DNA of 64,000 nt from contig CM059431.1 of NCBI GenBank assembly GCA_030390025.1, positions 95,234,001 through 95,298,000 of the forward strand, written 5' to 3'. This document shows, piece after piece, positions 19,521-62,484 of the stretch (positions within the stretch are counted from its first letter, which is position 1; each line of letters opens with the position of its first letter). The notes beneath the pieces are model-generated. The model searched no databases, was not told the DNA's origin, and saw only the letters and a program-made list of their open reading frames with translations. This stretch comes from Squalus acanthias (lineage: Eukaryota). The position numbers were made by a program, and so were the translations under genes.

Positions 19521-19522
19521 AG

Positions 19523-26531: not shown

Positions 26532-27164
26532 GCTTCTGGTATATGCCTCAGTTGAGGAAGTGCTCAGTCAAGGTGGCGAGAGGGGTTTCCCAGGAGGTCA
26601 CACTGGAGATGGGTGTCAGGCTCCAAACTTTCACAGCTGTGGTTGTGTCTTCTAAAAGTTCCCCCAGACCTGAAACAGCAAAGTCCTGCCACCTGAAAAT
26701 GAGGCTGATCAAATCTCCTATTTAATGGTTGAGCTGCAGCTGATAGTCAGCAATCCAATTGTGCTACCGCCAGGTCTCACCGTCGTGTTTCAGAACAGGC
26801 GTGCTTCACGTGGGAAAAGGGTTAAAATCACAAAGGCCTATCAAAATGGCATTATAGAGGCAATTTAGTGCTTGTTAAGGGCCTTAACGGCCTATCCCAC
26901 CTCTTGGAGGCGGGACGGAGACGGGACCAGTAGACACGATTTAATGAAAATTGCTTGGAGGCGGGATGGAGGCGGGGTTGGGCCCGCCCACCAGTTTTTG
27001 CAATTTTAACCACCCACACACCTCCAATCCCGCCTCAACGGCCCGATGAAATTCAAGCCTATAATCTCTGATCCTCCCCAATCTGTTAAACTGGAATAAT
27101 CTATCAATAGGGATACTATCCAGCCCTTTCTTTATTCTATAGACCACGATCAGGTCACCTGTAA

Positions 27165-40410: not shown

Positions 40411-43018
40411 ACCAGAGGAGGAAGAGAGAAAAGAAGAAGGGCAGCTGAGGGCTCGCTTCAGGAAGAGGTCATAAAAGAAAACCTTGTGCGAGTTGTCAGA
40501 CATCTCTGGAAGCAGCTCATAAAGGACCCTCTCACCTAAAATAACATCCATGCCTCCTGGCAATTCAGCCTTGCCATCATGTCCCCTTTGGCAACTACAT
40601 CAACCTATTCATTTACTGACAGGTGTTTTCCTCCATAATGACCAAGACTCCCATTTGGAAAATGTTGTTACTCTTTCTCACAGGTTTTCCCCCATCTTTC
40701 CCCAAATTATTCTGCACATATCCTGTCAGTGAATAAAAACGGTTTGTTTTTTTAACCACATGCTTCACCTTGGTGTTTATATTTTTGATCCTAATCTCCT
40801 CCTTCTCTCCAGTTCTCCCTCAATGGCTGTAGGTTCTGAGGTGGCAGAAACCTGGAGGGACTGAGGTTATTTTTGGTAGGGGGCCACTTTCTCCTTCAAA
40901 TAGAGAGAGTGAAGAGTCTCTGCTTTCCATCGTGTGTGAGGATTCTTAATGGGGTGATAGCAAGTGCAGAAAATGAGGAAACACATATTCCGAGTCTTTT
41001 ACTTTTTCCCTGCATGTCAGGCTGTGAGTGAAGGAACATTTTCAGGGGAAGGAAACAATTGTGACGGGTCCCATGGTATTTTGTGAATATTTCAGGGAAG
41101 TAGTACGTGGTGTTCTCGACAGAGAGGGCAAGCTCAGTGGAAATGTGAAACATGCTTCTAATACTGCATTGATTCAATTTGTGTCTACCTCCTCTTACTT
41201 TGGCTAACCTTGTAGGGCCATTGCACTCCTGGCATTGAGTAGGGGGTGCTCGAGGTGGCACTCAATGCCAAGGATACCTCCTTCCACTGAGCCTGGATCA
41301 TTTCTTTTGCAGGCCTCCTTTCCTTTGTGTGTTCAGGCATAGGCCAACTTTATAGCTAAACATCACAAGCATGCTCCATTGTTGTCAATGCCACAGGTGA
41401 TTAACGACTATGCTACAACATATCCATTGACAGATGATGCTCAAAGCATCTCTTTTGTTTTTAACGATATGATCAAACAGCTCGACTGCACGAACGCATA
41501 TCATAAAATTGCACAATGTCCCCAAAGATTTTGTACCCATTTAATAAAGGAGAACAACATGTGCTCCTGCAAAGGTCTGTGCTATGCAATACTATTGTCT
41601 TTGTACTTTGTCAACTTTCTGTACTTTAATTGTTTTGACTACACTGTTTCATATTGCATATATTTGTCATTGCTGCAGAGACATCGCTAATACAAGGCAT
41701 CAGTCTGATTACTGTACATATCATCATTTTAATGGCCAGCATATACCATTATGGAGACAACCTGTTACCTCAATAAAACACAGCAGATTATGAGTGTACT
41801 GTAAAGAACTGGACTTTGCAAGACATTTCATTCTGAGCAGTCTTCTTCATATCATCTTTGGAGATTAATAGGGGAAAGTAATTTATCAAATATATGCAGA
41901 ACTGAGTGAATATGAGATAAGGATGTATTAAAAATCAACAAGGTATCAGTGACAAGAAGTAGATTGTAGATCCCATGTAAAGAACAGCCTGATAAACGGA
42001 GAATGAAATGGCCTCTAGTAAGTAGTTTAGAGCAACTTCATACAGGTGCTGAAACTGTGCTAACGCATTTTTTTCCAGGATAACCCTGAGGTGATTTCAG
42101 CAGAGATCTCCTAGTTCTGCGAGAAAAGGTCAAACATTTGTCATTAAAATACATATATCAGCTGACAACATAATTTAATCTCTTGGGAATTTAGCAGAGG
42201 CTACTGCACTCCTCCCCAGAATTGTACTGAAATCTGCAACAAAATGAATCAATGCAGCAACTCAGTAGATGTGCATCAAATATTTAATCATGAACATTTT
42301 TTTTTAACAACATTTGAAAAATATGGATTCCGATTTTCACCAACCTATCTTTTGACATGAACAAGGCAGTAGCAGGATGAAAATTTCTAAAAGAATCAGA
42401 GCAATTTTGTGCCTCAGGCCTAGCCAAATGTGATTTTTGAAAAGGCCTTGATTTAGGCAGTTGACGCTTCTGCCTGAAACAGGGGCGAGCTTAATAAACA
42501 TATGCAAATAAGGGTCCTATACTGGTTTCAGGAACTGAATGCTATTTTGGTTGCAACCCACTTTGCTATCGACAATTCCTTAACCCACCCACAAACTATG
42601 GCCAGTACCTGTCGGAAGGACATCATTTACGGCAATATTTAAAGGGATCCTCAGCTGCTCTCAGGTAAAATGCCGGAAAGATTTTGGCTTGTATTAGAAA
42701 GTGGTTTTTGGTTACTTAAGCGATTTACAACTGTTGGCAGTGCCTGTACAATGTTCTCAACTGTTAAGGAGCTTCTGGCAATGCACTTTTTCCATAATGG
42801 GAGTCCTTCTGGGAATTCCACTGTAGTTAGAGGAAGAGGAGGTGGGGGGGCGGGGGAGAGGGCACCAGCAGGAAAGAGTACACAGAGCTGCAGCTGCAGG
42901 GAGAGCAATAAGAAGGAGGAGAGCTTGCAGGAATCCTTACCCTACCAGAGATTATAGGCCCAGGACAACATACCTCCACTTCTCAGAGGAGAAGTTCCTA
43001 CTGAGGCTGCACTTCAAG

Positions 43019-43127
43019 GGCAACACGGTGGCATAGTGGTTAGCACTGGTGCCTCACAGCGCCAGGGACCCGGATTCGAATCTGACCTCGGTCTGTTTCT
43101 ATGCTGTAAATTCTATGTAATTCTATG
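43019..43127 (+). mobile_element. HE1-like tRNA-derived SINE, internally deleted
   Basis: A box TGGCATAGTGG, B box GGATTCGAATC, head TTAGCACTGGTGCCTCACAGCGCCAGGGACCC, TTCTATG-type tail. Confidence 0.75.
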
Positions 43128-43648
43128 TCTCATTATCACCTCATTTTGCCTTGTACTCATCACTTTTGTCATATAATCGCCCGATCACAGCCCTTTCCTT
43201 TTAGTTCTTTACCTGCCCCTCTTTTCCCTGGGTCTGCACACGATTAAAAGCTGTTCATCTCTAACATAGAGTCATAGTTATAGAGTCATAGGGGTACAAA
43301 TTAGGTCGCGCCCCATTTGGGGCGCAAATATCGTCTGGACGCAAATATTAGCGCCTGGCGCTAATTATCGGCACTGACTGGAAACTTCACTTTTACCGCC
43401 CCGGGAGGTGAGTGGAGCGCTAAATCAGGCGCTGCACACCTGTCTTAAGGCGCAAAGGCCAAGGAGTGAGGCGCTAACTCAGCGCGCGAGCGCAGCGCAG
43501 CTGCTGCCAGTTAGCGAGGGAACACAGACACACTGGCGCCGGCCACTTCTTAAAGCGGGGGGGGCCACTTGCTCCCCAGCCACACCCTGCTCATTGCAGC
43601 CTTGAATCTCAGCCTGGAGAGACCTGTGAATCCATTTTGCTGCCAAGC

Positions 43649-45472
43649 ATGGAGAGGGTGAGAGAACGCGCTCATCGCTTCACCGAGCAGGCCTTGGATG
43701 CTCTGGTTGGCGCAGTGGAGCGCAGACGATGTATGCTGTTCCCTGAGAGTGGCAGGAGGCCTTTGCCACGCGAGTTCAGAAGAGTGTGGAGGGAGGTGGC
43801 TCAGAGCGTCTCCTCCAGGAGCATGGTGCCCAGGACCCATACTCAATGTCGCAAAAAGTTCAACGACCTCACTCGGGTCGTCAGGGTGAGTGGCTTTTTC
43901 TCAATATCTCTCCATCCCTCCATCTCAACCTCACTCTATGGCCAGAGGGTCTTAAAACCCCAATGCACAACACTCATCCAACACCTATGGCCCTTTCATC
44001 AAACACACACACACATTCCACACTTTGCATACAGTAAGGGCTATTCACCTATGGGAGGCACATCAGGCAAGACCATGGCTGCATACAGTAAGGGCTATTC
44101 ACCTATGGGAGGCACATCAGGCAAGACCATGGCTGTATATTTACTCAGATGCTGTCCTTTTTCTTGCAGGCTAAGCTGGCTCATAATAGGAGACAGCAGC
44201 AACGGACAGGTGGAGGGCGGCCTCAGCTGCAACCCCTCAGCGATCTGGAGGAGCGCGTCCACAGGATTGTGGCAAGCCGGGTGATCGGTCCCGTCGCCAC
44301 TGGAGACGCCGACCCCGTTCTGGACAGCAATGGTAAGGTCATCACCTTTTTGTCCTCTGTCCTTCCACTTGTCCCTCACAACATCAGCCTTTGACACTTT
44401 CAATCCAACTTGCTAACTCGCTGCACTTATTCCTCCCTTACTGACACCCTGTCCTCACGCTAAAGCCACTCTTGTACCTCCCTGCTTTCAGATGGTGATT
44501 CACCAGCTGAGGAGACGGGCCCTGAAGCTGCCACTGGGAGTGATGCTGCAGCTGAGGAGGAAGAGGAAGCCAGAGCATCAGTGCCACCCTCTCCCGAGGA
44601 AGCCCATGCCCACACTGGGAACACGCCTTCCCCGGAGGGGAGCAGGGGGGAAGGGGCTGATGAGGGTGAAGCTCCAGGACCCAGCGGGCTGCAGCAACGC
44701 CATGGGGGGGGGTAGGGAAGAACGGCGGCCTTCTCCCCAGAGGGAGAGTATGCCAGACACTCCTACTGCAATGGATGCAGAGGAGGAGCGGCTGATTGCA
44801 GAAATGAACACCCAGGCGGTGGGCATGCACACTGAGCTCATGGGTGCAGTGGGAAGGGTGCCCGAATGCATTGAGTCACTGGCAAGGAGTGTGGAGCACT
44901 TCGCTGTAGCACAGGCGGATGCCACACTAATGCTTAGTGCTGCAATTCAGTCACTGGCTGCCGTGATCCCATCTCTGACTGCTCTCATACAGACTCAGAT
45001 TGAGGCCACGCGAGCACAGACTGCTGCCAACCTCGATGGTTCGTGCACATGTCCCCGGGGCTGTCACCGCGCCGCAGCAGGCCAGCAATCTGTTCTCCGG
45101 CAGATTGCTCCGGATGCTGAAGTGCTGCCCCGTGGGAGTGCCAGTGTGTCGGGCGAGCAGGGAGTTGCTGTCCTCTCTCACGATGACAGCATTCCTGCTG
45201 CCAACACTGTCACTTCTCCACTGCACTTGCCACCGCCTGTAGGACAGACTGCTGCCGCCCATGCAGAATTGGTGCAGTCTGCAGCCGGGCCCTCCAGGCC
45301 CAGAAGTGGTCGAGGCCGTCCTTCAGGGGCATCTGCAGTGTCAGGGTCTGACGAGCAGCAGCCTTCCACCAGCCTTGCTGCAGCCACTGAGGTCCCATTA
45401 CGGAGGAGCAGTAGGGTTAGAAGGGGGGAAGTGCGCAAGGGAAGGAGATCACCCTCGAAGGGCAAAAAGTAG
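43649..45472 (+). pseudogene. Myb/SANT-coiled-coil gene of copy 1 (exons 43649-43885, 44170-44332, 44492-45472), frameshifted
   Basis: Canonical GT-AG sites; a G9 run at 44704-44712 (G5 in copy 2) puts TAG in frame right after the run. Confidence 0.75.
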
Positions 45473-45766
45473 GAGGTGTGACAAAATGCTGGTCATTTTT
45501 TTATTAAAGGCCGAGGTTCATGGTCCAACTTTTGTTTAGTGTTTTGGACATTATCTCCAGGTTGTGAGAACCAGTTATGTTATTGACTGTTTTTTTGTGT
45601 TTATTTCTATGAGTTTGTCATGAGGAATTGACACACACAGAGTTTGTAAAATAAATAAGTTTCTGTATTCAAAATATACATGGCTGGTGGTTGGAATTAT
45701 TGGTGCCTTGGCCGGCTTAGGGGTTGCGTGCTGGGTTGATTAATGTTGGTAGCAATGGCAGGGGCC

Positions 45767-46927
45767 CTAGAAGCGGCTTGCTATTAGCCGTTGACGGACG
45801 GCCCTTGCAGTTTGACCATTGTGGGCCGCCCTCCCGCCTTGGTGCTGCTGATGATCATCGTCCTCGTCCTCTTCCTCCTCTTCCTCCTCCTCCTCTGGTG
45901 GTGCTACAAGGCCTGGTGGCATTGGCTGGGTCCTGAGGATTGCCATGTTGTGCAACATGCAGCACACGACTACGAAGTTCGATACTTGCTCAGGCGAGTA
46001 CTGCAGGGCTCCTCCGGAATGGTCCAGACAGCAGAACCGTTGTTTCAGCACGCCGATTGTGTGCTCAATAATGTTCCTGATTGCTTGATGGCTTTCATTG
46101 TACCGCAGCTCAGCAGGGGTGTTTGGCGTACGGAGCGGTGTCATCAGCCAGGTGCTCAATGCATACCCCTTGTCCCCGAGAAGCCAACCAACTGGCTGAT
46201 GCGGTGCCTCGAAAAGTTCTGCCACAGTAGTCTGGCGCAGGATAAAAGCATCGTGGCAGCTGCCAGGATAGTGGGCATTGACAGCGAGTATCAGCTGTCT
46301 GTGGTCACAGACCAACTGGACATTCAAGGAATGGAACCCCTTTCTGTTCCTGAATTCCTCTGCATTCTCACGCGGAGCACGCAAAGCCACATGCGTGCAG
46401 TCAACGGCGCCCTGCACCATGGGGAAGCCCGCTACCCTCGCAAAGCCCAGAGCGCGGTCACGCTGCTTGTCTGGGGTCATAGGGAAAGAGATGAACTCTC
46501 GTCTCCTTCTGAAGAGGGCATTTGTGACCTGCCGGATGCAGCGATGCACCGCGAACTGGGAGATATTGGCGAGGTCCCCAACAGCAGCTTGGAATGAGCC
46601 AGTGGCGTAGAAGTTCAAAGCCACTGTGACCTTCACTGCCACCGACAGAGACGTCCTGGATCTCAGTTGAGGCTGCAGATCTGGCTGCAGCAGGTGGCAG
46701 AGCTCAGTGACCACCTCCTTGCTGAATCGCAGCCTTCGCAAACACAGCTCCTCGGGCATATGGATGTAGGAGAGCTGTTCACGATATACCCTGGGAGGGT
46801 AAGCTCTCCTGTACATGCGCCTGATGGCCCTCCTCCGTCTGGCCATCATTGCCACTCTCTCTCTGCGTCTCTGTATCCTCCGATTCAGCTGGAGCAGGAC
46901 GACGCCCCCAATCAGTGCAGCCCCCAT
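45767..46927 (-). CDS. Harbinger DDE transposase, 386 aa, intact
   Basis: ATG at 46927 (MGAALIGG); GAVDCTHV, CHDAFIL, LLGDKGY, RNIIEHTIG. Confidence 0.93.
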   Translation of the reverse strand: MGAALIGGVVLLQLNRRIQRRRERVAMMARRRRAIRRMYRRAYPPRVYREQLSYIHMPEELCLRRLRFSKEVVTELCHLLQPDLQPQLRSRTSLSVAVKVTVALNFYATGSFQAAVGDLANISQFAVHRCIRQVTNALFRRRREFISFPMTPDKQRDRALGFARVAGFPMVQGAVDCTHVALRAPRENAEEFRNRKGFHSLNVQLVCDHRQLILAVNAHYPGSCHDAFILRQTTVAELFEAPHQPVGWLLGDKGYALSTWLMTPLRTPNTPAELRYNESHQAIRNIIEHTIGVLKQRFCCLDHSGGALQYSPEQVSNFVVVCCMLHNMAILRTQPMPPGLVAPPEEEEEEEEEDEDDDHQQHQGGRAAHNGQTARAVRQRLIASRF

Positions 46928-48064
46928 ATTCTCTTTGCAAGAAAAGTAATGAGGGACAGCAACTAAAGTAGCAACAAAGTTAGGATGAATAGGCAAAACT
47001 ACCTCACAAAGCGTTGAGTCAATGTAGAAGTCTCTCTCTCTCTCTCTCCGAATCTCTCTCTCTCTCTCAGAACGAGTGGTGCATAAATGTCGACCACAGA
47101 AAAAGACAGGAAGAGGCCCCCTTTAAATAGCGCCCCCCCCAGCCCCACAGCGATTGATAGCGTTCCAGTCTTCCGGTCGTTGGAAGCGCCAGGCGGTAAG
47201 GCAGGGGGCGCCACTCAATTTCCGCTCCGGGGCGCCACAAGGGCGTTGCACCATGGAATGACGTCATAATCTGCGCGCGCAGGTGGTCGCAGCGGTAAGT
47301 TTTAGCGCCGCCGCACAATCTCTAGTTAAGTTCTCGAGCGGCGCAAACATCGCTGCGCCCGGGCGTTAGCGGCTTTGCGCCCTATTAGCGCCCTCTTAAG
47401 GCGCTAACGGGAGGCGCAACCAACTGAATTTTTACCCCATGGAGTTATACAGCACAGAAAGAGGCCCTTCGGCCCATCGTGTCCGCGCCGGCCATCAAGC
47501 CCTGTCTATTCTAATCCCATTTTCCAGCACTTGGTCCGTAGCCTTGTATGCTATGGCGTTTCAAGTGCTCATCTAAATGCTTCTTGAGTGTTGTGAGGGT
47601 TCCTGCCTCTACCACCCCTTCAGGCAGTGAGTTCCAGATTCCAACCACCCTCTTCCAGTTCTAATGCAAGGCCTTCAACCTGAAACGTTAACTCTGTTTA
47701 GAATCATAGAACCAGAGAATGATACAGCACAAAAGGAGGCCATTCGGCCCATCGTGCCTGTGCCGGCTCTTTGAAAGAGCAATCCAATTAGTCTCACTCC
47801 CCTGCTTTTTCCCCATAGCCCTGCACATTTTTACATTTCAAGTATTTATCCAATTCCCTTTTGAAAGTTATTATTGAAACTGCCTCTGCCATCCTTTCAG
47901 GCAGCGCATTCCAGATCATAACAACTCGCTCCGTAATTGTTTTTACTCATGTCGCCTCTGTTTCTTTTGCCAATTAGCTTAAATCTGTGTCCTCTGATAC
48001 CGAGCTTCTGCTACTGGAAACAATTTCACATTAGCTACATTTCAAAACCCTTCATGACTTTGAA

Positions 48065-48177
48065 CACCTCTTTCCCACATTACAACAGTGACTACACTTC
48101 ACAAAATACTTCATTGGCTGTAAAGCGCTTTGAGACGTCCGGTGGTCGTGAAAGGCGCTATATAAATGCAAGTCTTC
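48065..48177 (+). mobile_element. SINE 3' tail (L2-type)
   Basis: TTCATTGGCTGTAAAGCGCTTTGAGACGTCC...GGCGCTATATAAATGCAAGTC. Confidence 0.65.
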
Positions 48178-48372
48178 CTTCCTTATCTATCCTTAACCTT
48201 CTCTGCAGTAAGGAGAACAACCTCAGTTTATCTAGTCTCTCCACATAACTAAAGGTCTTTCATCCCTGGTACCATTCTAGTAAATCTCCTCTGCAGTCTG
48301 GTAAGTTTCCTTTGCACCTTCTCCATGCTTTGTCATCTTTCCTAAAGTGTTGTGCCCAGAATTGGACACAAT

Positions 48373-51354
48373 GGCCCTGATATTAATGTTAGGTGGCTTC
48401 TGAGCACAGGGGGGTGGGGGATTTTGGGATTGCGTGGGCAAAACCTGGAATTTAAGTCAGTATGTCCAAATCTGCGATCGCAACTTTATTGAAGCAATAC
48501 ATTTTGACTTCTGGGTTTTGTGTCTCCAAGCTGCACGGCGGGCGTGATTCATACGCGCATGGCACAATCTGAAATCTATTTAAGGGCCAATGTAGAAATG
48601 GAAATTGGAGAAGCCAGGAGGTTGGATGCACAGAGAGCAAGGGCAGCACCCAGAGCTAATAATGCATCCCTGGAATTACTGCTGGGTGCAGTCTGGAGCA
48701 GGAGGGACATACTTTTCCCCAGTAATGGGAGACAGAAACCTGCAGCTCCCACCAAAGAAGCATGGCTGGAGGTAGCTGAGGAGGTGAGCAGCAGGTACAT
48801 TGTGCTCAGGTCTTGTATGCATCGCAGGAAGCAGTTTAATGACCTAACCAGGTCAGGAAAGGTGAGTACATTTGCTGATTCACCTGCATCCTGTGGTTTA
48901 AGCAACTCCCAAGTCCCCCCCCAACCTGCCCTTCACTCTGTCTTGCCAAGCGTACTGCATCACATCACCCCTCTCACCCACTCAAATTTCAGCAGCACCC
49001 AGCCTTCACTTTCTATGTACTTCATCACTTCCCCATTTATCCATCTACCATTGCCAGTCACCCAAATCCTTATGCAATGTGATGCATCTGTCTTATAGTC
49101 ACCCTCACCAAATGCACCGCATCCATCGGGTGAACACTTGACCATCAGTCACTCACAGGCCTGTTTCTTCACCCCTTGTCGTCCAGCTCACAGATGCGGA
49201 GAAGAATGCCATGGAGATAAGTATCACATCTGCGTCCCTCTCCATCAGAGATGGAGAGACAGGGAACTTGCAGATAGCTGGTGGTGACAGAATTACAAAT
49301 ATCTCTGTCACACATATGTTAACTTTGACAGAACTATGAAAAGACTGGGTATGGTGATTGACAAGATTGTGACTTTCCCACGATTAATTCATATCCCTTT
49401 TTTTTGGCTTCCATGGCCTTCACGCATACAAATGTCTCTGTCCATGCATGAGGACGATTCCTCAGAGGACCTCACTCCTTCCGAGGCTGCATCGTCACAG
49501 GACGTACAGCAATGCACCAGCGCAAATACTTGCACTTTGGTGGGTCCACTTAGATAGTTAGTTGGGTTTTCACCTGGTGATTTACACCTCACAAGTGAGC
49601 AAGAGCAGATATTAGTGGCAGGGACATGTGTGGAGAGTCTGCGTCAGGGGTGCAATCCTCTTCAAGCTCTGCTCAGCTGGACACAGATGTTGAACCCCGG
49701 GGCTGGTCTGGCGATGGGTGCCACATCTTCATATTCCTCCTCCTCCACTTCTTTTCAATGTTCTCTTCATCCGAAGATGATTGATGAGCGCCTTTGTATT
49801 CCTCCCCCTGCAATACTCTCTGCTGCACAACGTTGTGCACACCACTATCATTCTGGACACCCTCGCTGGTGAGGTCTAAAGGGTGCCTCCAGACCTATCT
49901 AGGCACCTGAAGTGCATCTTCAACAGTCCAATGGCTTGCTATATGACACATTTGGTTGTCATGAGGCTCTCATTGTAGTGCTCCTGCACCTCATTTGTGG
50001 AGTACCTCACAGGTGTAATGAGGCACGTTTGAAGGGGGTATCCCTTGTCTCCTAAGAGACAAGGGATACCCCCTTAAGTCTGCTTCCTGTAAAAAAAACT
50101 CTGGAATGTTGGACTGCCTCAGTATGAAGGCAGCATGTTAGCTCCCAGGAAATGCACACCTGCATGAACCTCTTTTTATGGTTGCACACCAGCTGCGCAT
50201 TGATGGAAGAATATCCCTTGCAGTTTATAAAAACTCTTGGTTGCTCTGGTGATGCTTGGATTTCCACGTGTATGGAAACGATGGCATCCTGAACCTGTGG
50301 AATCCAGTCAGAGAGGCAAATTTTAGTGCCTGCTCATTCTGGTTATTGTCATCACTCCCAGCCCTGGCATCCATCACCTACCTTATACATTTATGTGCAG
50401 CAACTATGAGAACTCTCCGCTAGTGCCCTGAAAAGGAACCAGAGGCAAAAAAATTGATGGCCACGGTGACTTTCACAGCCATTGGTAATGCATGGCCGCC
50501 AGGTCCAGCAGGTAGCAGGTCTTCTAAGAGACTGCAGATGTCTGCCACCACCTGACGTGACAACCTCAGACTGCGGAAGCATTGCTCTCCGTGATGTGAA
50601 GGAACTGAGCCTCTGTCTGTACAGCCTGTTACATGGATAGTGCCTCCTACGACCTTGGCCGCTCTCCTGTGCACCTCTCTCCTGTGCACCTTTCCCCTGT
50701 GCACCTCTCTCCTGTGCACCTTTCCCCTGTGCACCTCTCTCCTGTGCACCTTTCCCCTGTGCAGCTCTCTTCTGTGTACCTGCTGATCCCACCACAGCAC
50801 ATAGTTGCCGTTGATGGTAATGGTCTTCCTCTTCTGATGTACTGTCAAACACGTCCAACGCGCCTCCCATCCTGATCTTGTCAGTTTGAAAGCATCAAAG
50901 TTTTGAAAAAGCTGTATCAACACAAGAATTCTCTACCAAATGTTTGCCAGAGAGAACTGAGACACCAGCTGTAATAACTGAGCTTTTATTCAGATGGGGC
51001 AATCACAACTTTAAATACCCACATGAACTGCAGCTCAATCTCGCCTCCGTTTCACTGGCGAGATTCACGCACCCTGGGAAACCCATGCTGGAGACAAGTT
51101 TAGTAAAACTCAATATAAAAAGACCTAATTAATGTCTCATAAGAGCGTTAATTGCTGTGATGACTACCCGCCCGACTGCACTAATTAAGGTCCCGACAGC
51201 AGCGAGTAGACTACTCGCATGCCTCCAAACGTGCATCCATTAAACCCAGAAGTGGGCGTGTTGGAGCTGGGTTGCAGTCACAGTTTAAAGATCACTGATT
51301 TTAACTACACATTCGTCCCCAACCCACCCATTCTTGTGGGTTAAAATTCCCACC
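48373..51354. mobile_element. Degraded Harbinger with Myb (+) and transposase (-) remnants
   Basis: AAT duplicated at 48370-72 and 51355-57; AWLEVAEEV...[24 protein letters not shown]...FFASGSF and INAQLVCNH. Confidence 0.8.
50667..50775 (-). repeat. 15/30-bp tandem repeat in the transposase N-terminal region
   Basis: Alternating CCTGTGCACCTCTCT and CCTGTGCACCTTTCC units, encoding ([10 protein letters not shown])n. Confidence 0.9.
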
Positions 51355-51423
51355 AATACTCCAGCTGGGGCCTCAGCAGTGCTTTATAAAGGTTTGGCAT
51401 AACATCCTTGCTTCTGTACTCTA

Positions 51424-52688
51424 TGGCCGGAATTTATTCCAGGGAGGCGGGGGACTCCAAGGTGGGCGGGAAACCCGGGAGGCCAGGTTTCCCACAGGCC
51501 CTGCTGACTTTAATGGCAGGGCCTGATTTGCAGGTGAGGCCTTAGATTCCCGCCCGCAGCCAGCCAGGTTGAGAGGCTGGTTGATGCAGGCAGTTAGGCC
51601 TGCAGCTGCGAGGGGTAGGTCCGGGGGAGGTGGGGGGTGGGTGGGGCATCGGCATGGGGCATCAGAATCGCGGGAGGGGGGTCAGGGGCTCAGCATCGGG
51701 GATCGGGGATCGCGGGAGGGGGGTCGGCATTCCGCATCGGGGATCGTGGGAAGGGCGTCGGCATGGGGGATCGCGGGATGGGCGTCGGCATCGGGGATCG
51801 GGGAGGGGCGTCGGCATCGGGTATCATGGGAGGGGCGTCGGCATCGGGGATCGGGGGAGGGGTGTCGGCATCGGGGATCGCGGGAGGGGCGTCGGCATCG
51901 GGGATCGCGGGAGGGGCGTCGGCATCGGGGATCGTGGGAGGGGCGTCGGCATCGGGTATCACGGGAGGGGCGTCGGCATCAGGGATCGGGGAGGGGTGTC
52001 GGCATCGGGGATCGGGGAGGGGTGTCGGCATCGGGGATCGGGGAGGGGTGTCGGCATCGGGGATCGCGGGAGGGGCGTCGGCATCGGGGATCAGGGATCG
52101 CGGGGGGGGGGTCGGCATCGGGGATTGGCAGGGTGGTGGTCGGCATCGGGGATCGGGGGTGATGGAGGATTGGCGGGAGGGGTTGGCCAGAGCATCGGCG
52201 GGGGTGGGAGAGGACCGGGGCCAGACACCGGAGGATTGTGGCCAGCCTCATCATCATCAGGGGAGGCCTCATGGTGGGGATCGGAGGCCTGGGGAGGCGA
52301 TCGGAGGCCTCATGAGGGGGTCTCCAGTCGCGAGGGGAGTGTTAGGTAGGGACCCTGGATCCAGGAGGCAGGTATAAAGCCACTTGCCTCCTGGATGCAG
52401 CAGTCCCCGCCTCGGTTTAACTGCCAGGTTTCACGAATTGTGTGAAACCCATCCACAGGCAGTTAAATTCAAAATGGAGGGCGAAACAGAGGCTTTCAGC
52501 CTCATTACAATATTTAAATTATGGTAACACCCCCTGAGAGCGGGTTGGCTGCCCAACCCCCATCCCACCTCCGGCAAAACCGGAATTGGGCCTGTTGATG
52601 GCGGATCAGGTCGGGAATCCCATTTTTAACAATGTAACTGTCCCCACGCTCCAAACCCACCCATTTTTTTAGGGGAAAATTCCAGCCA
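51424..52688. mobile_element. Harbinger-type MITE carrying a minisatellite
   Basis: TIRs TGGCCGGAATTT / AAATTCCAGCCA; CTA TSD at 51421-23 and 52689-91. Confidence 0.85.
51645..52160 (+). repeat. G-rich CpG minisatellite (~25-27 bp unit)
   Basis: Repeats of GGCATCGGGGATCG(CG)GGAGGGG(C/T)GTC. Confidence 0.95.
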
Positions 52689-53921
52689 CTATGCCTCTAT
52701 TTATAAAGCCAAGGTTCCCATATGCCTTTTTAATAGCCTTCTCAACTTGGCCTGCCACCTTCAAAGACTCGTGTACATATAAAGTCTCGTTGTTCATGCA
52801 CCCCCTTTCAAATTGTATCATTTAGTTTAAATTGCCTCTCCTCATTTTCTCTCCACAGATGCTGCCTGTCCTGCTGAATTTTTCCAGCATTTTGTTTTTA
52901 TTTTTACCATCTGTTTACTAAAAAAAATAATGTCAATGCTTTCCCCATGAGCAACATGATAGGGCTCTGGGGTTCATGCCACTTCCAGGCTTCCTTCAAA
53001 TCCAGGGCATCATTGACTGCACACACATCACCCTGCAGTCTCCTTCAAAAGACCCCGCTGGCATCATAAGTAATTTTATCAATGTCCAATTGGTGTGTCA
53101 TGAGCAGCAACACATCATGCAGCTCTGTGCCCATTATAGTGACAGCTATCATGATGCCTCCCTACTACGCCAGTCCTCCATTCCCTTGATCTTTGACCCT
53201 GCACAGCAAGTCAAGGGCTAAATTCTTAAAACTGTTGGATCTCTTGCTACTCCATCGACATCCATGTGGTCCAGAAACTATGACCCCCTGTTTATAACAA
53301 AAAACAGAGAATCGATTGTGGCTCTACTTTAGAGCCCAAGGAGTTAATTTGTCAAATCATGATTTCCTCATGTCACCGTGAGGAAATATTCACTTAAATT
53401 AAGAAACTTAGGGGTAAAAATTCAGTTGGTTGCGCCTCCCGTTAGCGCCTTAAGAGGGCGCTAATGGGGCGCAAAGCCGCTAACGCCCGGGCACAGCGAT
53501 GTTTGCGCCGCTCGGGAACTTAACTAGACATTGTGCGGCGGCGCTAAACTTTACCGCTGCGACCACCTGCGTGCGCAGATTGTGACGTCATTCCATGGTG
53601 CAACGCCCTTGTGGCGCCCCGGAGCGGAAATTGAGTGGCGCCCCCTGCCTTACCGCCTGGCGCATCCAACGACCGGAAGACTGGAACGCTATCAATCGCT
53701 GTGGGGCTAGGGGGGGCGCTATTTAAAGGGGGCCTCTTCCTGTCTTTTTCTGTGGTTGACATTTATGCACCACTCGTTCTGAGAGAGAGAGAGAGATTCG
53801 GAGAGAGAGAAAGAGAGACTTCTGCATTGACTCAACGCTTTGTGAGGTAGTTTTGCCTACTGATCCTAACTTCACTAGTACTTTGGTTGCTGTCCTTCAT
53901 TACTTTGCTTGCAAAGAGACT

Positions 53922-55082
53922 ATGGGGGCTGCACTGATTGGGGGCGTCGTCCTGCTCCAGCTGAATCGGAGGACACAGAGACGCAGAGAGAGAGTGGCAA
54001 TGATGGCCAGACGGAGGAGGGCCAACAGGCGTATGTACAGGAGAGCTTACCCTCCCAGGGTATATCGTGAACAGCTCTCCTACATTCATATGTCTGAGGA
54101 GCTGTGTTTGTGAAGGCTGCGATTCAGCAAGGAGGTGGTCACTGAGCTCTGCCACCTGCTGCAGCCAGATCTGCAGCCTCAACTGAGGTCCAGGACGTCT
54201 CTGTCGGTGGCAGTGAAGGTCACAGTGGCTCTCAACTTCTATGCTACTGGCTCATTTCAAGCTGCTGCTGGGGACCTCGCCAATATCTCCCAGTTCGCGG
54301 TGCATTGCTGCATCCGGCAGGTCACAAATGCCCTCTTTAAAAGGAGACGAGAGTTCATCTCTTTCCCCATGACCCCAGACAAGCAGCGTGACCGCGATCT
54401 GGGCTTTGCGAGGATAGTGGGCTTCCCCATGGTGCAGGGCGCCATTGACTGCACGCATGTGGCTTTGCGTGCTCCACATGAGAATGCCGAGGAATTCCAG
54501 AACAGAAAGGGGTTCCATTCCTTGAATGTTCAGTTGGTCTGTGACCACAGACAGCTGATACTCGCTGTCAATGCCCACTATCCTGGCAGCTGCCACAATG
54601 CTTTTATCCTGCGCCAGACTACTGTGGCAGAACTTTTCGAGGCACTGCATCAGCCAGTTGGTTGGCTTCTCGGGGACAAGGGGTATCCATTGAGCACCTG
54701 GCTGATGACACCGCTCCGTACGCCCAACACCCCTGCTGCGCTGCGGTACAATGAGAGCCATCAAGCTACCAGGAACATCATTGAGTGCACAATCGGTGTG
54801 CTGAAGCAACGGTTCCGCTGTCTCGACCATTCTGGAGGAGCCCTGCAGTACTCGCCTGAGCGAGTATCCAACTTCGTAGTTGTGTGCTGCGTGTTGCATA
54901 ACATGGCAATCGTCAGGACCCAGCCAATGCCACCAGGCCTTGGAGCACCACCAGAGGAGGAGGAGGAAGAGGAGGAAGAGGACGAGGAGGATGATCATCA
55001 GCAGCACCAAGGCGGGAGGGCGGCCCACAATGGTGAAACTGCAAGGGCCGTCCGTCAATGGCTAATAGCAAGCCGCTTCTAG
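53922..55082 (+). pseudogene. Harbinger transposase of copy 2, inactivated
   Basis: CGA-to-TGA at 54111-54113 relative to copy 1; conserved HD changed to HN (CHNAFIL). Confidence 0.88.
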
Positions 55083-55394
55083 GGCCCCCGCTGTGGAAAT
55101 GGCTTCTGCCATTGCTAACAACATCAATGAACCCAGCACGCAACGCCAAAGCCGGCCAAGGCACCAATAATTCCAAACACCAACCATGTATATTTTGAAT
55201 ACAGAAACTTATTTATTTTCCAAACTCTGTGTGTGTCAATTCCTCATGACAAACTCATAGAAATAAACACAAAAAAACAGTCAATAACATAACTGGTTCT
55301 CACAACCTGGAGATAATGTCCAAAACACTAAACAAAAGTTGGACCACGAACCTCGGCCTTTAATTAAAAAAAGACCAGCATTTTGTCACACCTC

Positions 55395-57214
55395 CTACTT
55401 TTTGCCCTTCGAGGGTGATCTCCTTCCCTTGCGCACTTCCCCCCTTCTAACCCTACTGCTCCTCCGTAATGGGACCTCAGTGGCTGCAGCAAGGCTGGTG
55501 GAAGGCTGCTGATTGTCAGACCCTGACACTGCAGATGCCCCTGAAGGACGGCCTCGACCAGTTCTGGGCCTGGAGGGCCCGGCTGCAGACTGCACCAACT
55601 CTGCATGGGCGGCAGCAGTCTGTCCTACAGGCGGTGGCAAGTGCAGTGGAGAAGTGACAGTGTTGGCAGCAGGAATGCTGTCATCGTGAGAGAGGACAGC
55701 AACTCCCTGCTCGCCCGGCACACTGGCACTCCCACGGGGCAGCACTTCAGCATCCGGAGCAATCTGCTGGAGAACAGATTGCTTGCCTGCTGCGGCACGG
55801 TGAGAGCCCCGGGGACATGTGAATGAACCATCGAGGTTGGCAGCAGTCTGTGCTCGCGTGGCCTCAATCTGAGTCTGCATGAGAGCAGTCAGAGATGGGA
55901 TCACGGCAGCCAGTGACTGAATTGCAGCATTAAACGTTAGTGTGGCATCCGCCTGTGCTACAGCGAAGTGCTCCACACTCCTTGCCAGTGACTCAATGCA
56001 TTCGGGCACCCTTCCCACTGCACCCATGAGCTCAGTGTGCATGCCCACCGCCTGGGTGTTCATTTCTGCAATCAGCCGCTCCTCCTCTGCGTCCATTGCA
56101 GTAGGAGTGTCTGGCATACTCTCCCTCTGGGGAGAAGGCCCCCGTTCTTCCCTACCCCCATGGCGTTGCTGCAGCCCGCTGGGTCCTGGAGCTTCACCCT
56201 CATCAGACCCTTCCCCCCTGCTCCCCTCCAGGGAAGGCGTGTTCCCAGTGTGGACATGGGCTTCCTCGGGAGAGGGTGGCACAAATGCTCCGGCTTCCTC
56301 TTCCTCCTCGGCTGCAGCTTCACTCCCAGTGGCAGCTTCAGGGCCCGTCTCCTCAGCTGGTGAATCACCATCTGAAAGCAGGGAGGTACAAGAATGGCTT
56401 TAGCATGAGGACAGGGTGGCAGTAAGGGAGGAATAAGTGCAGCGAGTTAGCAAGTTGGATTGAAAGTGTCAAAGGCTGGTGTTGTGAGGGACAAGTGGAA
56501 GGACAGAGGACAAAAAGGTGATGACCTTACCATTGCTGTCCAGAACGGGGTCGGCGTCTCCAGTGGCGACGGGACCGATCACCCGGCTTGCCACAATCCT
56601 GTGGACGCGCTCCTCAAGATCGCTGAGGGGTTGCAGCTGAGGCCGCCCTCCACCTGTCCGTTGCTGCTGTCTCCGATTATGCGCCAGCTTGGCCTGTAAG
56701 AAAAAGGACAGCATCTGAGTAAATATACAGCCATGGTCTTGCCTGATGTGCCTCCCATAGGTGAATAGCCCTTACTGTATGCAGCCATGGTCTTGCCTGA
56801 TGTGCCTCCCATAGGTGAATAGCCCTTACTGTATGCAAAGTGTGGAATGTGTGTGTGTGTTTCATGAGAGGGCCATAGGTGTTGGATGAGTGTTGTGCAT
56901 TGGGGTTTTAAGACCCTCTGGCCATAGAGTGAGGTTGAGATGGAGGGATGGAGAGGTATTGAGAAAAAGCCACTCACCCTGACGACCCGAGTGAGGTCGT
57001 TGAACTTTTTGCGGCATTGAACATGGGTCCTGGGCACCATGCTCCTGGAGGAGACGCTCTGAGCCACCTCCCTCCACACTCTTCTGTACTCGCGTGGCAA
57101 AGGCCTCCTGCCAGTCTCAGGGAAGAGTATAGATCTTCTGCGCTCCACCGCGCCAACCAGAGCATCCAAGGCCCGCTCGGTGAAGCGATGAGCTCGTTCT
57201 CTCACCCTCTCCAT
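55395..57214 (-). CDS. Myb/SANT-coiled-coil protein of copy 2, 458 aa, intact (exons 57214-56978, 56693-56531, 56371-55395)
   Basis: Exons of 237+163+977 nt splice at GT-AG into one open frame; RAHRFT...VWREVAQSV...QCRKKFNDL. Confidence 0.8.
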
Positions 57215-57809
57215 CCTTGGCAGCAAAATGGATTCAAGGCTGCAATGAGCAGGGTGTGGCTGGGGAGCAAGTTGGCCCCCCCCCCGCTTTAAGAACTGGC
57301 CGGCGCCAGTGTGTCTGTGTTCCCTCGCTAACTGGCATCACCTGCGCTGCGCTCGCGCTCTGAGTTAGCGCCTCACTTCTCGGCCTTTGCGCCTTAAGAC
57401 AGGTGTGCAGCGCCTGATTTAGCGCTCCAATCACCTCCCGGGGCGGTAAAAGTGAAGTTTCCAGTCAGTGGCGATAATTAGCGCCAGGCGCTAATATTTG
57501 TGTACAGATGATATTTGCGCCCCAAATGGGGCGCGACCTAATTTTTCCCCCTTAAAATTTAATAATGCCCAATATATAAATTTACATTCAGCAATACAAA
57601 AGTTGATATTGGTGAATTAAAAACAGCCGTCAGTAGAAAGGTTTAACTCCTTTGTAGGTTTATAAGGCTGAGCAAAATATCATCAGACGCACCTTGTAAA
57701 TTTAAAAAGACTTTTCTGAACGAAAAAGAACCAAATGCCATTATACCTTTTTTCAAGTCTTTTTACCTATTAAAACTCCTTCGGTTAGTTAGTACAGTCC
57801 AATTACAAG

Positions 57810-59012
57810 CACTGCTCCCTCTAAGGTGTGCGGCCGCGCACTGATCCCAAAGCGCCCGCGCACTTAAATTCAAAGGCCACGCAGAGAGCTGGAGAGCTGG
57901 AGTGGGGGAAGGGCCTGATACACAATGGCCCGTGAATCCTCATTGGAATTCCTAATTGGAAATTAACAAAAGAGTTGGGGCAGTGGGCACATGATAAGGG
58001 AGTGGGTGATGTGTCGGTTGTGTTGTCCTCTGAGAAGCGCCACATGCTGCAGGCCAAGCTCAGCCGGCTCCCATGGTGGTGAGGGCAGCCTGTCCCCCCT
58101 TCTCCTTTGGTGTCAGGGTTACGGGGGCTGTGTTACAGTAACTCCACGGTCACTGCTGAGCAAATCGGAGCAGGCCAGATTAGTGCAGCCGACCACCACT
58201 ATGGGGCTTGACCAAGCCTTCAAATTGGGCTAGATTGGTAGACACCACGTGTAACTCATCTTCTTATTAAACATAGACTGGTGAGTGAGTTGCCGAGTTT
58301 TACTCGTAACAGTTGAGTAAGACGGTGCTTTGTTGCTGTCAGATGGTAGTGGCATATTTTAGGAGAAGAAATGAGAAATGAGTTTGTGTGAATTTTGAGC
58401 TGTACGTAAATCCGCTTTTTAAAATAAAATGATCCGACTGCAGATGGGTTTGTAAAATCAGGCTTTCAATCATTAGGTGGAGCAAGGAAGCATTTTAGCA
58501 GAGGGAAGAGGAGTGATTAACACAAGTTTAACTTACTTTTATTAGTTACTTTTTACTAAATCCAATAGTTATGGATTTATGGTTTTAGTCTTGTTGCTGA
58601 TGAAAATTAACAAAACCTTAATAACATAAAAAGTGGGGAAAATTGGAGCTTACTTTTGAAAATCAGAATTCTGGCGCCAGGTTTATACTTTTAGAAATGT
58701 TGAGGCACATCTGTCTGCTGAAGAATTCAATCCGCCTGGGGGCAACAAAGGTTGCCTCTTGTTTTTGATGGTAGTGTGAGTGTGGCCAGCTGAAGGCTCG
58801 GCCGTCAATGGTGGAGCGATTAAAATCGGGAATGCGCAAGAGGCCCGAATTGCATGAGCGCAGAGATCTCAGAGGTTTTTAGGCACTGTTCCCTGTAAGG
58901 TGTGCAGCTGCGCACTGATCTGTAAGGTCCTGCACTTAAATTCAAAGGCCGTGCAGTGAGCTGGAGAGCTGGAGGTGGAGGGGCCTAATACACAATGGTC
59001 CAGGAATCCTCA
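57810..59012 (+). repeat. ~130-bp diverged direct repeat (57810-57942, 58883-59012)
   Basis: Both copies read CACTG(C/T)TCCCT(C/G)TAAGGTGTGC...CACTTAAATTCAAAGGCC...GAGCTGGAGAGCTGGAG...ATACACAATGG...GAATCCTCA. Confidence 0.85.
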
Positions 59013-60227: not shown

Positions 60228-62484
60228 TGAGAAGGTGGTGGTGAGCCGCCTTCTTGAACCGCTGCAGTCCGTGTGGTGAAGATGCTCCCACAGTGCTGTT
60301 GGGGAGGGAGTTCCAGGATTTTGACCCAGCAACTATGAAGGAACAGCGATATATTTCCAAGTCAGGATGGTGTGTGACTTGGAGGGGAACTTGGAGGTGG
60401 TGGTGTTCCCATGCGCCTGCTGCCCTTGTCCTTCTAGGTGGTAGAGGTCGTGGGTTTGTGAGGTGCTGTCAAAGAAGCCTTGGGGAGTTGCTGCAGTGCA
60501 TCTTGTAGATGGTATACACTGCAGCCACGGTACGCCGGTGGTGGAGGGAGTGAATGTTCAAGGTGGTGGATGGGGTGCCAATCAAGCAGGCTACTTTGTC
60601 CTGGATGATGTCGAGCTTCTTGGGTGTTGTTGGAGCTGCACTCATCCAGGCAAGTGGAGAGTATTCCATCACACTCCTTACTTGTGCTTTGTAGATGGTG
60701 GAAAGGCTTTGGGGAGTCAGGAGGTGAGACACTCGTTGCAAAATACCCAGCCTCTGACCTGCTCTTGTAGCCACAGTATTTATATGGCCGGTCCAGTTAA
60801 GTTTCTGATCAATGGTGACCCCCCAGGATGTTGATGTTGGGAGATTCGGTGAAGGTAATGCTGTTGAATGTCAAGGGGCGGTGGTGAGATGCTCCCTTGG
60901 AGATAGTCATTGCCTGGCACTTGTGTGGTGCGAATGTTACTTGCCACTTATCAGCCCAAGCCCTCCTCCTGTCAGTTGCTTAATGGTCCACCACCATTCA
61001 TGACTAGATGTGGCAGGACTGCAGAGCTTTGATCTGATCCGTTGGTTGTGGGATCGCTTAGCTCTGCCTATAGAATGCTATTCTGCTTTTTAGCATGCAT
61101 GTAGTCCTGTGTTGCAGCTTCCCTGGTTGGCACCTCATTTTTAGGTATGCCTGATGCTGCTCCTGGCATGCACTTCTACACTCCTCATTGAACCAGGGTT
61201 GGTCCCCTGGCTTGATGGTAATGGTAGAGTGAGGGATATGCCAGGCCATGAGGTCACAGATTGTGGTGAAATGCAATTCTGATGATACTGATGGCCCACA
61301 ACACCTCATGGATGTCCAGTTTTGAGCTGCTAGATCTGTTCTGAATCTATCCCATTTCGCACAGTGGTAGTGCCACACAACATGACGGAGGGTGTCCTTA
61401 GTGCGAAGATGGGATTTCGTCTCCACAAGGACTGTGCGGTGGCCACTGCTACCAATACTGTCATGGACAGATGCATCTGTGACAGGTAGATTGGTGAGGA
61501 TGAGGTCAAGTAGGTTTTTCCCTCGTGTTGGTTCTCTCACCACCTGTCGCCGGCCCAGACTGGCAGTTATGTCCTTCAGGACTTGGCCAGTAGTGGTGCT
61601 ACCGAGCCACTCTTGGTGATGGACAGTGAAGTCCCCCACCCAGAGTACATTCTGTGCCCTTGCTACCCTCAGTGCTTCTTCCAAGTGGTATTCAACATGG
61701 AGGAGTACTGATTCATCAGCTGAGGGAGTGCGATAGGTGGTAATCAGCAGGAGGTTTCCTTGCCCATGCTTGACCTGATGCCATGAGACTTCTTTGGGTC
61801 CGGAGTCAATGTTAAGGACTCCCAGGGCCACTCCCCCATGACCATATAACACTGTGCCACCTGTCCTGCTGGTGGGACAGGACATACCCAGGGATGGTGA
61901 TGGAGGAGTCTGCGACATTGGCTGAAAGGTATGATTCTGTGAGAATGACTATGTCAGGCTGTCGCTTGACTTGTCTGTGGGACAGCTCTCCCAATTTTGG
62001 CACAAGTCCCCAGATGTTGGTGAGGAGGACTTTGCAGGGTCGACTGGGCTGGGTGTGCCATTGTCGTGTCCGAAGCAGGTGCCGATGCTGGGTGGTCCGT
62101 CCATTTTTTTAATTCTTATTGTTTCTTGCAGCGGTTTGTTATAACTGAGTGGCTTGCTAGGCCATTTCAGAGGGCAGTTAGGAGCCAACCACATTGCTGA
62201 GTGTCTGGAATCACATATAAAGCCAAACCAGGTAAGGACCGCAGATTTTGTTCCCTGAAGGATATTAGTGAACCAGATGGATTTTTGCGACAATCCGGTC
62301 GTTTCATGGTTACCATTACTGATACTAGCTTTTTATTCCAGATTTACTTAAAAACCTGAATTGAAATTCCACAGCTGCCGTGGAAGAAGATATAATTTCT
62401 CTGTGGGGTAGGTGATGTGAGCTTAGGTTTTACACGTCACCAAATTACGAGTCCAGTAACACAATCACTATGCTACCGTGCCCT
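60228..62484 (-). mobile_element. Single-ORF CR1-clade LINE, copy C, with RT core deleted
   Basis: EN ORFs 61058-62003 and C-terminal ORF 60469-60774; junction at ~60960 lacks ~1 kb present in copies A and B; tRNA-like 5' head. Confidence 0.88.

Follow-up and report, generated by a model that had tools for sequence, protein, structure and literature searches.

Can two neighbouring copies of a transposon, each broken in a different one of its two genes, together make up one working source of transposition, or are they simply two copies in ordinary decay? The question is raised by a pair of PIF/Harbinger elements in a stretch of cartilaginous-fish DNA (64 kb in all, hereafter the window), of which one copy keeps an open transposase gene and the other an open Myb-like gene. 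A sequence-only reading had proposed that the pair could act as a split, trans-complementing unit, and had named independent neutral decay as the alternative. The evidence set out below favours that alternative: we put the probability that the pair represents ordinary, independent decay of two copies, with no functional unit, at roughly 80%.

Two insertions of one element

The two near-identical 4.1-kb elements that had been described as lying about 6 kb apart in opposite orientation are indeed inverted to each other, with coordinates that agree to the base (Table 1) and 5,972 bp between them. A repeat search returned four collinear pairs of arms, 275-1,681 nt long and 95-97% alike, and a single alignment of the whole elements (MAFFT, BLASTN) gave 95.2% over 4,170 columns. 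Inside the element, where identity is about 96%, the copies are separated by 153 substitutions (54 in the transposase gene, 41 in the Myb gene and 58 in non-coding sequence) and by four indels of 3, 24, 4 and 18 bp. This likeness ends precisely at the element termini, beyond which the flanks are unrelated. Read inwards, the 3' end is GGGGTAAAAATT in both copies, and each 5' end is alike at 11 of its 12 bases. The Myb gene of copy 1 lies on the + strand and its transposase gene on the - strand, tail to tail.

How did the two copies come to lie side by side? Copy 2 is bordered on the + strand by TTA at 53408-53410 and again at 57552-57554, a 3-bp TAA/TTA target-site duplication. Copy 1 sits within a SINE-like repeat, between ATA (43288-43290) and ATG (47439-47441); these triplets agree at two of three bases, so that its target-site duplication is degenerate or mutated. 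Because flanks and target-site duplications differ, the copies are two independent insertions; birth of the pair by inverted segmental duplication was considered and is ruled out by the same differences. Both copies carry the same minority variants at sites such as 45748, 46163 and 57335, where most of the family reads otherwise, and therefore belong to one sub-lineage. The elements combine a DDE_Tnp_4-type transposase, a separate Myb-like gene, terminal inverted repeats and, in copy 2, a target-site duplication of 3 bp, the features of PIF/Harbinger.

The window also contains at least three more Harbinger remnants and four LINE pieces, and a Harbinger of another family within it has an open transposase frame of 433 aa. 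At the contig joint 47699/52848, a search for the terminal repeats of a further element gave nothing clear.

Table 1. Coordinates of the two Harbinger copies and of their genes and lesions, numbered from the first letter of the window
Feature	Coordinates	Strand	Basis or remark
Harbinger copy 1, 4,148 bp	43291..47438	+	Repeat search, alignment, ends
5' terminal inverted repeat, copy 1 (GGGGTACAAATT)	43291..43302	+	11/12 bases match 3' terminus
Copy 1 Myb-like gene, exon 1 (79 codons, Myb_DNA-bind_5)	43649..43885	+	
Copy 1 Myb-like gene, exon 2	44170..44332	+	
Copy 1 Myb-like gene, exon 3, broken by G9 run	44492..45472	+	
G9 run (44704-44712), then TAG (44713-44715) in shifted frame	44704..44715	+	Assembled sequence
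Copy 1 transposase, open, 386 codons plus stop, DDE_Tnp_4	45767..46927	-	
3' terminal inverted repeat, copy 1	47427..47438	-	Read inwards, GGGGTAAAAATT
Harbinger copy 2, 4,141 bp	53411..57551	-	Opposite orientation to copy 1
Copy 2 transposase gene, broken	53922..55082	+	
Copy 2 premature TGA, codon 64 (CGA in copy 1; CpG transition)	54111..54113	+	Assembled sequence
Copy 2 AAT (Asn), codon 226, second catalytic Asp of GSxHD motif (CpG transition)	54597..54599	+	
Copy 2 Myb-like gene, exon 3 including stop	55395..56371	-	
Copy 2 Myb-like gene, exon 2	56531..56693	-	
Copy 2 Myb-like gene, exon 1	56978..57214	-	

Reciprocal lesions and the state of the open genes

Both genes are recognizable in both copies. 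The DDE_Tnp_4 domain (PF13359) is found by Pfam at 3.1e-38 in copy 1 and 8.5e-39 in copy 2, with PF04827 also above its cut-off, and the protein collection offers as nearest transposase one of 65% identity, among cartilaginous-fish models named 'putative nuclease HARBI1'. Exon 1 of the Myb-like gene encodes Myb_DNA-bind_5 (PF13873; 2.1e-9 in copy 1, 1.2e-10 in copy 2). The gene model of copy 2, spliced from its three exons, has GT/AG at both introns and is collinear with three database Myb-domain proteins across both exon junctions. For exon 3, an exhaustive protein search gave 13 matches, and a word-based search, which scored 8,000 candidates, had no match at E <= 0.001.

The lesions reported earlier from the letters of the DNA are all present in the assembled sequence. 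In the Myb gene of copy 1, nine G stand where copy 2 has five, a TAG follows, and the conserved C-terminal part of exon 3 resumes in a different frame; the transposase frame of this copy is open, as had been claimed, and retains the whole catalytic triad (D176, D226 and E288). In copy 2 the spliced Myb gene is free of stops over 458 aa, again as claimed, and it is the transposase that is broken, by the change of CGA to TGA and by that of HD to HN (C-H-N, written TGC CAC AAT, for the C-H-D of copy 1) at a codon where Asp occurs in copy 1 and in 35 of 50 homologues. Judged by its reading frames, then, neither copy is autonomous, the Myb gene being frameshifted in the one and the transposase carrying both TGA and D226N in the other, and no copy of the pair has both genes open together with an intact D-D-E triad.

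Homopolymers of eight or nine bases are error-prone in long-read assemblies. Could the run of nine G be a miscount of eight, which would restore the frame, or of five as in copy 2, so that neither frame of copy 1 would be broken and it would be a candidate autonomous element instead of one half of a pair? We consider this highly improbable: the gap of four bases to copy 2 exceeds the usual error of one base, three more indels separate the copies, so that indels do happen here, and the private changes T283I and R299C in the transposase of copy 1 would remain regardless of how the run is counted.

These private changes bear on a broader point, namely whether the genes that stay open are sound. 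Positions 283 and 299 both lie beside the catalytic E288, and the I283 and C299 of copy 1 depart there from strongly conserved columns: T is found at 283 in 100% of the family contigs (runs X1 and X5) and in 46 of 52 homologues, and R at 299 in 98-99% and in 41 of 53, respectively. The open Myb gene of copy 2 likewise has a private K330, where Q occurs in nine of nine relatives and in copy 1, as well as V173, where the family contigs have A.

Neutral decay versus a shared function

What would have to be true for the pair to be a split source? Copy 1 would supply the transposase and copy 2 the Myb-like protein, the two would mobilise themselves and other members of the family, and transposon-level selection would maintain the open genes. 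The presence of one open frame of each kind fits this picture, as does the retention of all three catalytic residues in copy 1, and a supply of the two proteins in trans is mechanistically possible, as the available part of PMC2836001 indicates. Against it stand the private missense changes just described in both open genes, and also the single mismatch to the 3' terminus that each 5' terminus carries. Moreover, reciprocal lesions are not rare by chance. In a neutral decay model (analytic, single-hit and run at the observed class-specific rates), the probability that a frame stays open is about 0.43 for the transposase and about 0.41 for the Myb gene, and that of a reciprocal, complementary pair is about 0.12. 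The location of the lesions in different genes would thus be a coincidence, of a kind that neutral decay yields in roughly one pair in eight; and because both proteins diffuse and can act in trans from anywhere, the neighbouring position of the copies has no mechanistic role.

The pattern of divergence speaks in both directions. Between the two transposase genes, 29 non-synonymous differences are observed against 38.5 expected under class-corrected neutrality (z = -2.9; Nei-Gojobori ratio 0.34). Since non-synonymous changes thus fall below the neutral expectation, part of the transposase divergence arose under purifying selection. This deficit counts in favour of a split source; it is read here as selection that preceded insertion, in active source lineages, but the same signal would follow if copy 1 had been under selection once inserted. 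When the 27 differing transposase positions were polarised with 54 homologues, however, the ancestral state fell to copy 1 at seven and to copy 2 at eight (12 being unclear), which points to equal decay of the open and the broken gene. Similarly, across the 134 transposase columns with at least 70% consensus, departures number eight in copy 1 and seven in copy 2.

CpG transitions, the usual mark of decay in methylated vertebrate DNA, make up 36 of the 153 differences between the copies and include both transposase lesions; CpG observed/expected is still 0.57. The polarised CpG changes in the transposase are derived at three sites in copy 1 and at 14 in copy 2, fewer in the open than in the broken gene as a split source would have it, although choosing the open frame itself favours the less mutated gene and so biases the comparison. 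In Myb exon 3, polarised changes are derived at four sites in the broken copy 1 and at one in the open copy 2. The inequality of the CpG-polarised changes between the transposase and the rest is not significant (Fisher p = 0.16), and copy 2 is the more decayed overall (25 vs 11, p = 0.03). The trend runs in the direction that a split unit predicts, without significance. Furthermore, all three CpG-derived changes in the open transposase are non-synonymous, and the CpG polarisation is taken as approximate because the homologues give a different polarity at codons 175 and 324.

The number of relatives weighs against any privileged role for this pair. In run X1, 184,230 contigs are at least 90% like the 15-kb stretch: 106,653 at 90-95%, 55,243 at 95-99% and 22,334 at 99% or above, the last figure taking in the locus itself and flanking SINE-like repeats; these abundances, like the variant counts given above, rest on Logan contigs. 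Summed depth in the element interior is 2.1-4.7e5, compared with 5.9-10.3 for locus-specific contigs of the same run, or about 10^4 times single-copy, a sum of contig depths that is not a copy number. A second, independent sample from this organism (X5) gives the same picture, as does another organism (X7, 26,526 contigs). The family is therefore massively multicopy in this organism, and because it is, any open transposase or Myb gene genome-wide could serve; judging from family size, other sources with open frames probably exist elsewhere in the genome. Taken with the private missense changes at conserved sites and with the roughly 12% of pairs in which neutrality alone would leave reciprocal lesions, this abundance leads us to set aside the split, trans-complementing unit of the sequence-only reading as very unlikely.

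Is the family perhaps still, or recently, active, with the two copies as siblings from a local hop and at least one open frame among many working sources? Membership of one sub-lineage, the distance of only 6 kb, the contigs at least 99% like the stretch, the CpG ratio and the open 433-aa frame of a third Harbinger in the window, one of a different family, all speak for this. A difference of 3.7% between the copies, however, means that neither is young, and the most similar contigs are swelled by the locus and its flanking repeats as stated. The sole candidate RNA run (X15) is RNA by guess. It holds family contigs at 55937-56184 (one other letter, no gap, in the G5 form) and at 45360-45662 (no other letter), none of its family contigs could be assigned to copy 1 or copy 2, and one, at 43597-44055, is unspliced and passes from exon 1 into intron 1; spliced joints of the Myb introns were not found among the contig joints listed. 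We regard an active family of this kind as unlikely, and its fuller version, in which a family of about 10^4 copy-equivalents is still mobile in an elasmobranch, with transposase from copy 1 and Myb protein from copy 2 among its working sources and the copies as local-hop siblings, as still less likely.

Independent decay, the reading that we prefer, runs as follows. Two members of a single sub-lineage within a PIF/Harbinger family of very high copy number inserted separately into a transposon-dense region of a cartilaginous-fish genome. Since then, and in part beforehand in its source lineage, each has gained point changes and short indels, among them many CpG transitions. An expansion of the G run by four broke the Myb gene of copy 1, and two CpG transitions gave copy 2 its stop and cost its transposase the catalytic Asp. 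After insertion both copies would have evolved neutrally, and the pair as such would have had no special role. If the family still moves, transposase and Myb-like protein would come from whichever copies function and would act in trans on every copy whose ends are good.

Relation to known Harbinger systems

The same two protein folds recur in HARBI1/NAIF1 and other domesticated Harbinger pairs. Domesticated Harbinger genes are single-copy host genes that lack terminal repeats and target duplications, whereas the genes described here lie inside a repeated element, bounded by terminal inverted repeats and present in very many copies. A closer likeness is to the autonomous PIF/Harbinger elements, such as the reconstructed Harbinger3_DR of zebrafish and Ping and Pong of rice, which share with the present pair a DDE_Tnp_4 transposase, a Myb/SANT-like gene, short terminal inverted repeats and a 3-bp TAA/TTA target-site duplication. 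Unlike in those elements, one of the two frames is broken in each copy here. That transposition requires the transposase as well as the Myb-like protein, as the sequence-only reading had stated, is borne out by the accessible portion of PMC2836001, where ORF1 (the Myb-like protein) and the transposase work with each supplied on a vector of its own, and they cross-mobilise related elements.

Does nature use such an arrangement? According to the part of the report available, split functions are supplied in trans in Harbinger-1M_cIno of Caenorhabditis inopinata (Sato et al. 2026, PMC13668399), which is a natural precedent in favour of a split source and, in concept, the same split trans-complementation as was proposed for this pair; the splitting of Harbinger functions in trans is, on that text, already published. 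In the nematode a spontaneous insertion mutant proves activity, and a census of 258 copies found one locus with an intact DDE gene (same report, same portion). By contrast, the family considered here is far larger, and each copy of the pair keeps its two genes, of which one is disabled by a small lesion and not lost.

What, then, is the significance of the pair? As it stands it matters little, being a well-preserved case of two Harbinger copies decaying independently in repeat-rich cartilaginous-fish DNA. Two points beyond it are of modest value. In the accessible part of a study of fish Harbingers (PMC9179366), the superfamily went undetected in elephant shark and other cartilaginous fishes were called for; here, in an elasmobranch-type genome, one family is very abundant and has near-complete copies with both genes, and at least two further Harbinger families occur within 64 kb. 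Should open frames prove to be few genome-wide, the family would become a case in which the functional partitioning recently reported for the nematode (PMC13668399, as available) could be tested in a vertebrate; and if the reading of a mobile family were true, this would be a rare naturally active vertebrate Harbinger, its functions partitioned among copies.

Anatomy and origin of the two copies

The region 43291-57551 consists of two opposite-facing copies of one 4.1-kb PIF/Harbinger element, which appear in a repeat search of the window as four collinear inverted arm pairs (95-97%). The sequence-only reading had described a near-identical inverted pair ~6 kb apart, and this description holds (95.2% identity across 4,170 columns by BLASTN; spacing 5,972 bp). 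Whereas 153 substitutions and 4 indels (3, 24, 4 and 18 bp) separate the copies within the element, in a global alignment their likeness begins and ends exactly at the termini (GGGGTAAAAATT, read inwards, the 5' terminus of each copy having one mismatch), and the sequence outside is unrelated. TTA stands on both flanks of copy 2, the classical 3-bp Harbinger duplication, and ATA and ATG flank copy 1 within a SINE-like repeat. Since similarity stops at the termini, the flanks are unrelated and the flanking triplets differ, the copies are independent insertions; an inverted segmental duplication is ruled out by the same flanks and triplets. They belong to one sub-lineage, because they share minority variants of the family. 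Both also have a 54-bp tandem duplication in Myb intron 1 (44026-44133 and 56724-56831), which is thus older than their separation.

Each copy bears two convergent genes, a DDE_Tnp_4 transposase (Pfam, 3e-38 and 8.5e-39) and a Myb/SANT-like gene of three exons with Myb_DNA-bind_5 in exon 1 (Pfam). In the protein collection, the closest matches to the transposase reach no more than 65% identity and are cartilaginous-fish models named ‘putative nuclease HARBI1’ (389 matches at E <= 0.001 among 4,646 candidates). For copy 2, the open 458-aa Myb gene claimed earlier is borne out by a spliced model with GT/AG intron borders; three database proteins bearing the same Myb domain stay collinear with it through each exon junction. 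Two proteins matching the Myb C-terminal region (P0121 and P0133) come from gene models in which it is joined to RING/B-box/PML-like or immunoglobulin domains, probably annotations of other genomes that took in Harbinger fragments.

Lesions and the state of the open genes

The reported lesions are present in the window sequence: in copy 1 the Myb gene is frameshifted by a G9 run followed by TAG (G5 in copy 2), and the copy 2 transposase carries CGA-to-TGA at 54111 and HD-to-HN at codon 226, both CpG transitions. An exhaustive protein search found 13 relatives of Myb exon 3 at E <= 0.001 (best 1e-29), so the family conserves the region behind the frameshift, and losing it should be of consequence. 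Codon 226 is Asp in 35/50 homologues, the other acidic columns being D176 (44/53) and E288 (30/53); these three residues we take, from general knowledge of such transposases, to be the catalytic triad. In Ping, a catalytic Asp-to-Ala change lowers excision about 150-fold, according to an excerpt of PMC2836001.

How sound are the genes that remain open? Both transposases were aligned with 54 homologues of 330-450 aa, drawn from 120 among the matches listed. At the 27 differing positions the commoner state is kept by copy 1 at 7 and by copy 2 at 8 (12 undecided); among 134 columns with at least 70% consensus, departures number 8 for copy 1 and 7 for copy 2, of which five are common to both, and across 65 columns with at least 85% consensus the sole departure is T283I in copy 1. 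In the organism's own family contigs, codon 283 encodes T (100%), codon 299 R (98-99%; C in copy 1) and codon 289 R (H in copy 1, C in copy 2), the copy 1 changes being grouped around E288. Myb position 330 is K in copy 2 but Q in copy 1 and 9/9 relatives, and position 173 is V in copy 2 but A in family contigs. Given such private replacements at conserved sites, the ‘intact’ copy 1 transposase and copy 2 Myb gene are therefore open yet altered.

Family abundance and neighbourhood

Public contigs were matched to 43000-58000 at 90% likeness. A run of the same organism gave 184,230 contigs, with summed depths of 2.1-4.7e5 per bin in the element interior vs 5.9-10.3 for contigs unique to the locus; an independent sample of the organism gave the same picture, and a run of another organism 26,526 contigs. 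Summed contig depth is not copy number, so these figures show only that copies of the family are very numerous (on the order of 10^4 copy-equivalents). Seven further organisms each contained roughly one quarter of the words sampled from 43000-52999 (one run comprising only 9 million letters); part of this stretch is shared by several species in near-identical form and at high copy number. Shark genomes measure a few gigabases, and at this family size chance alone would place roughly a tenth of the copies no more than 6 kb from another. Harbinger and Tourist are the commonest DNA transposons in one shark genome annotation (excerpt of PMC12498223); for the elephant shark, an excerpt of PMC9179366 states that Harbingers were not detected.

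The window is transposon-dense, with at least three further Harbinger remnants of other families and four LINE pieces that encode endonuclease and reverse-transcriptase domains. A 433-aa frame of a third Harbinger shares 57% protein identity with the copy 1 transposase, and a remnant of yet another family lies between the copies. Contig depth along the stretch peaks in the SINE-like repeats at 47440-48510, where it sums to about 1.5e6 in the first run. In each of the four runs many contigs pass straight from 47699 to about 52848, which means that about 5.1 kb, with the inter-copy Harbinger remnant in it, was inserted in a repeat that is continuous elsewhere.

Features of the two copies and of other repeats in the window
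Feature	Position	Strand	Remark
Copy 1	43291-47438		alignment of both copies
Copy 2	53411-57551		opposite orientation to copy 1
Copy 1 transposase	46927-45770	-	open, 386 codons; stop 45767-45769
Copy 1 Myb G9 run, then TAG	44704-44712		G5 in copy 2
Copy 2 transposase premature TGA	54111-54113		CGA in copy 1
Copy 2 transposase codon 226	54597-54599		Asp to Asn
Third Harbinger, Myb-like stretch	23048-23254	+	other family
Third Harbinger, DDE_Tnp_4 frame	25269-26567	-	stop-to-stop open, 433 aa; convergent with Myb-like stretch
Inter-copy remnant, Myb_DNA-bind_5 frame	48508-49095	+
Inter-copy remnant, transposase-like	49828-50587	-	31-49% identity
Inter-copy remnant, transposase-like	52943-53239	+
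Isolated Harbinger piece	8027-8227	-	Myb-like
Isolated transposase fragment	18796-19536	+	60% protein identity to copy 1
LINE piece	11862-14327	-
LINE piece	19650-22002	+
LINE piece	27100-29880	+	single open frame, 927 aa, both domains
LINE piece	61061-61948	-
Tandem array	50648-50796		15-bp unit, 7 copies; between copies
Tandem array	51706-52127		27-bp register, 8 overlapping copies; between copies
Open frame, GDSL-lipase-like	10112-10678	+	below Pfam cut-off (30.2 vs 32.9 bits)

Complementation or independent decay

The sequence-only reading proposed that the copy 1 transposase and the copy 2 Myb protein form a split, trans-complementing unit. Its premise, that transposition requires both proteins, agrees with an excerpt of PMC2836001, in which the Myb-like protein attaches to the element ends and brings in the transposase. 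The same excerpt, however, has both proteins functional from separate vectors and mPing cross-mobilised by Ping and Pong proteins; complementation by diffusible proteins therefore needs no adjacency, and any two copies in the genome suffice.

Constraint might still argue for a functional pair. Relative to expectations that account separately for CpG changes, transitions and transversions, non-synonymous differences between the copies are in deficit in the transposase (29 vs 38.5, z = -2.9) and less so in the Myb gene (26 vs 29.6, z = -1.3), with Nei-Gojobori ratios of 0.34 and 0.62, the latter rising from 0.41 ahead of the frameshift to 1.15 after it. Part of the divergence thus arose under selection, which is attributed to active source lineages before insertion. 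CpG-polarised transposase changes number 3 in open copy 1 vs 14 in broken copy 2, and homologue-polarised derived changes in Myb exon 3 number 4 in broken copy 1 vs 1 in open copy 2 (13 undecided), the trend that the complementation idea predicts. It is given little weight, because it lacks significance (Fisher p = 0.16), decay is further advanced in copy 2 as a whole (25 vs 11 CpG-polarised changes, p = 0.03; Myb 5 vs 6, non-coding 6 vs 2), all three copy 1 transposase changes are non-synonymous, and picking the still-open frame favours the less-hit gene.

Under a neutral model that gives each lineage half of the class-specific rates estimated over the whole element, a frame would stay open with probability about 0.43 (transposase) or 0.41 (Myb), and reciprocal complementary lesions would arise in a pair with probability about 0.12. 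Although crude (single-hit approximation, all divergence taken as post-insertion), even this model shows that the pattern would be unremarkable.

A split of catalytic and DNA-binding roles across elements, acting in trans and with genetically proven activity, is already published for C. inopinata, according to an excerpt of PMC13668399. For the present pair, the multicopy family, the diffusible proteins, the private replacements and the probability of chance leave a functional unit unsupported. The best explanation, to which we give a probability of roughly 0.8, is that two copies of an abundant Harbinger family would have decayed independently after separate insertions.
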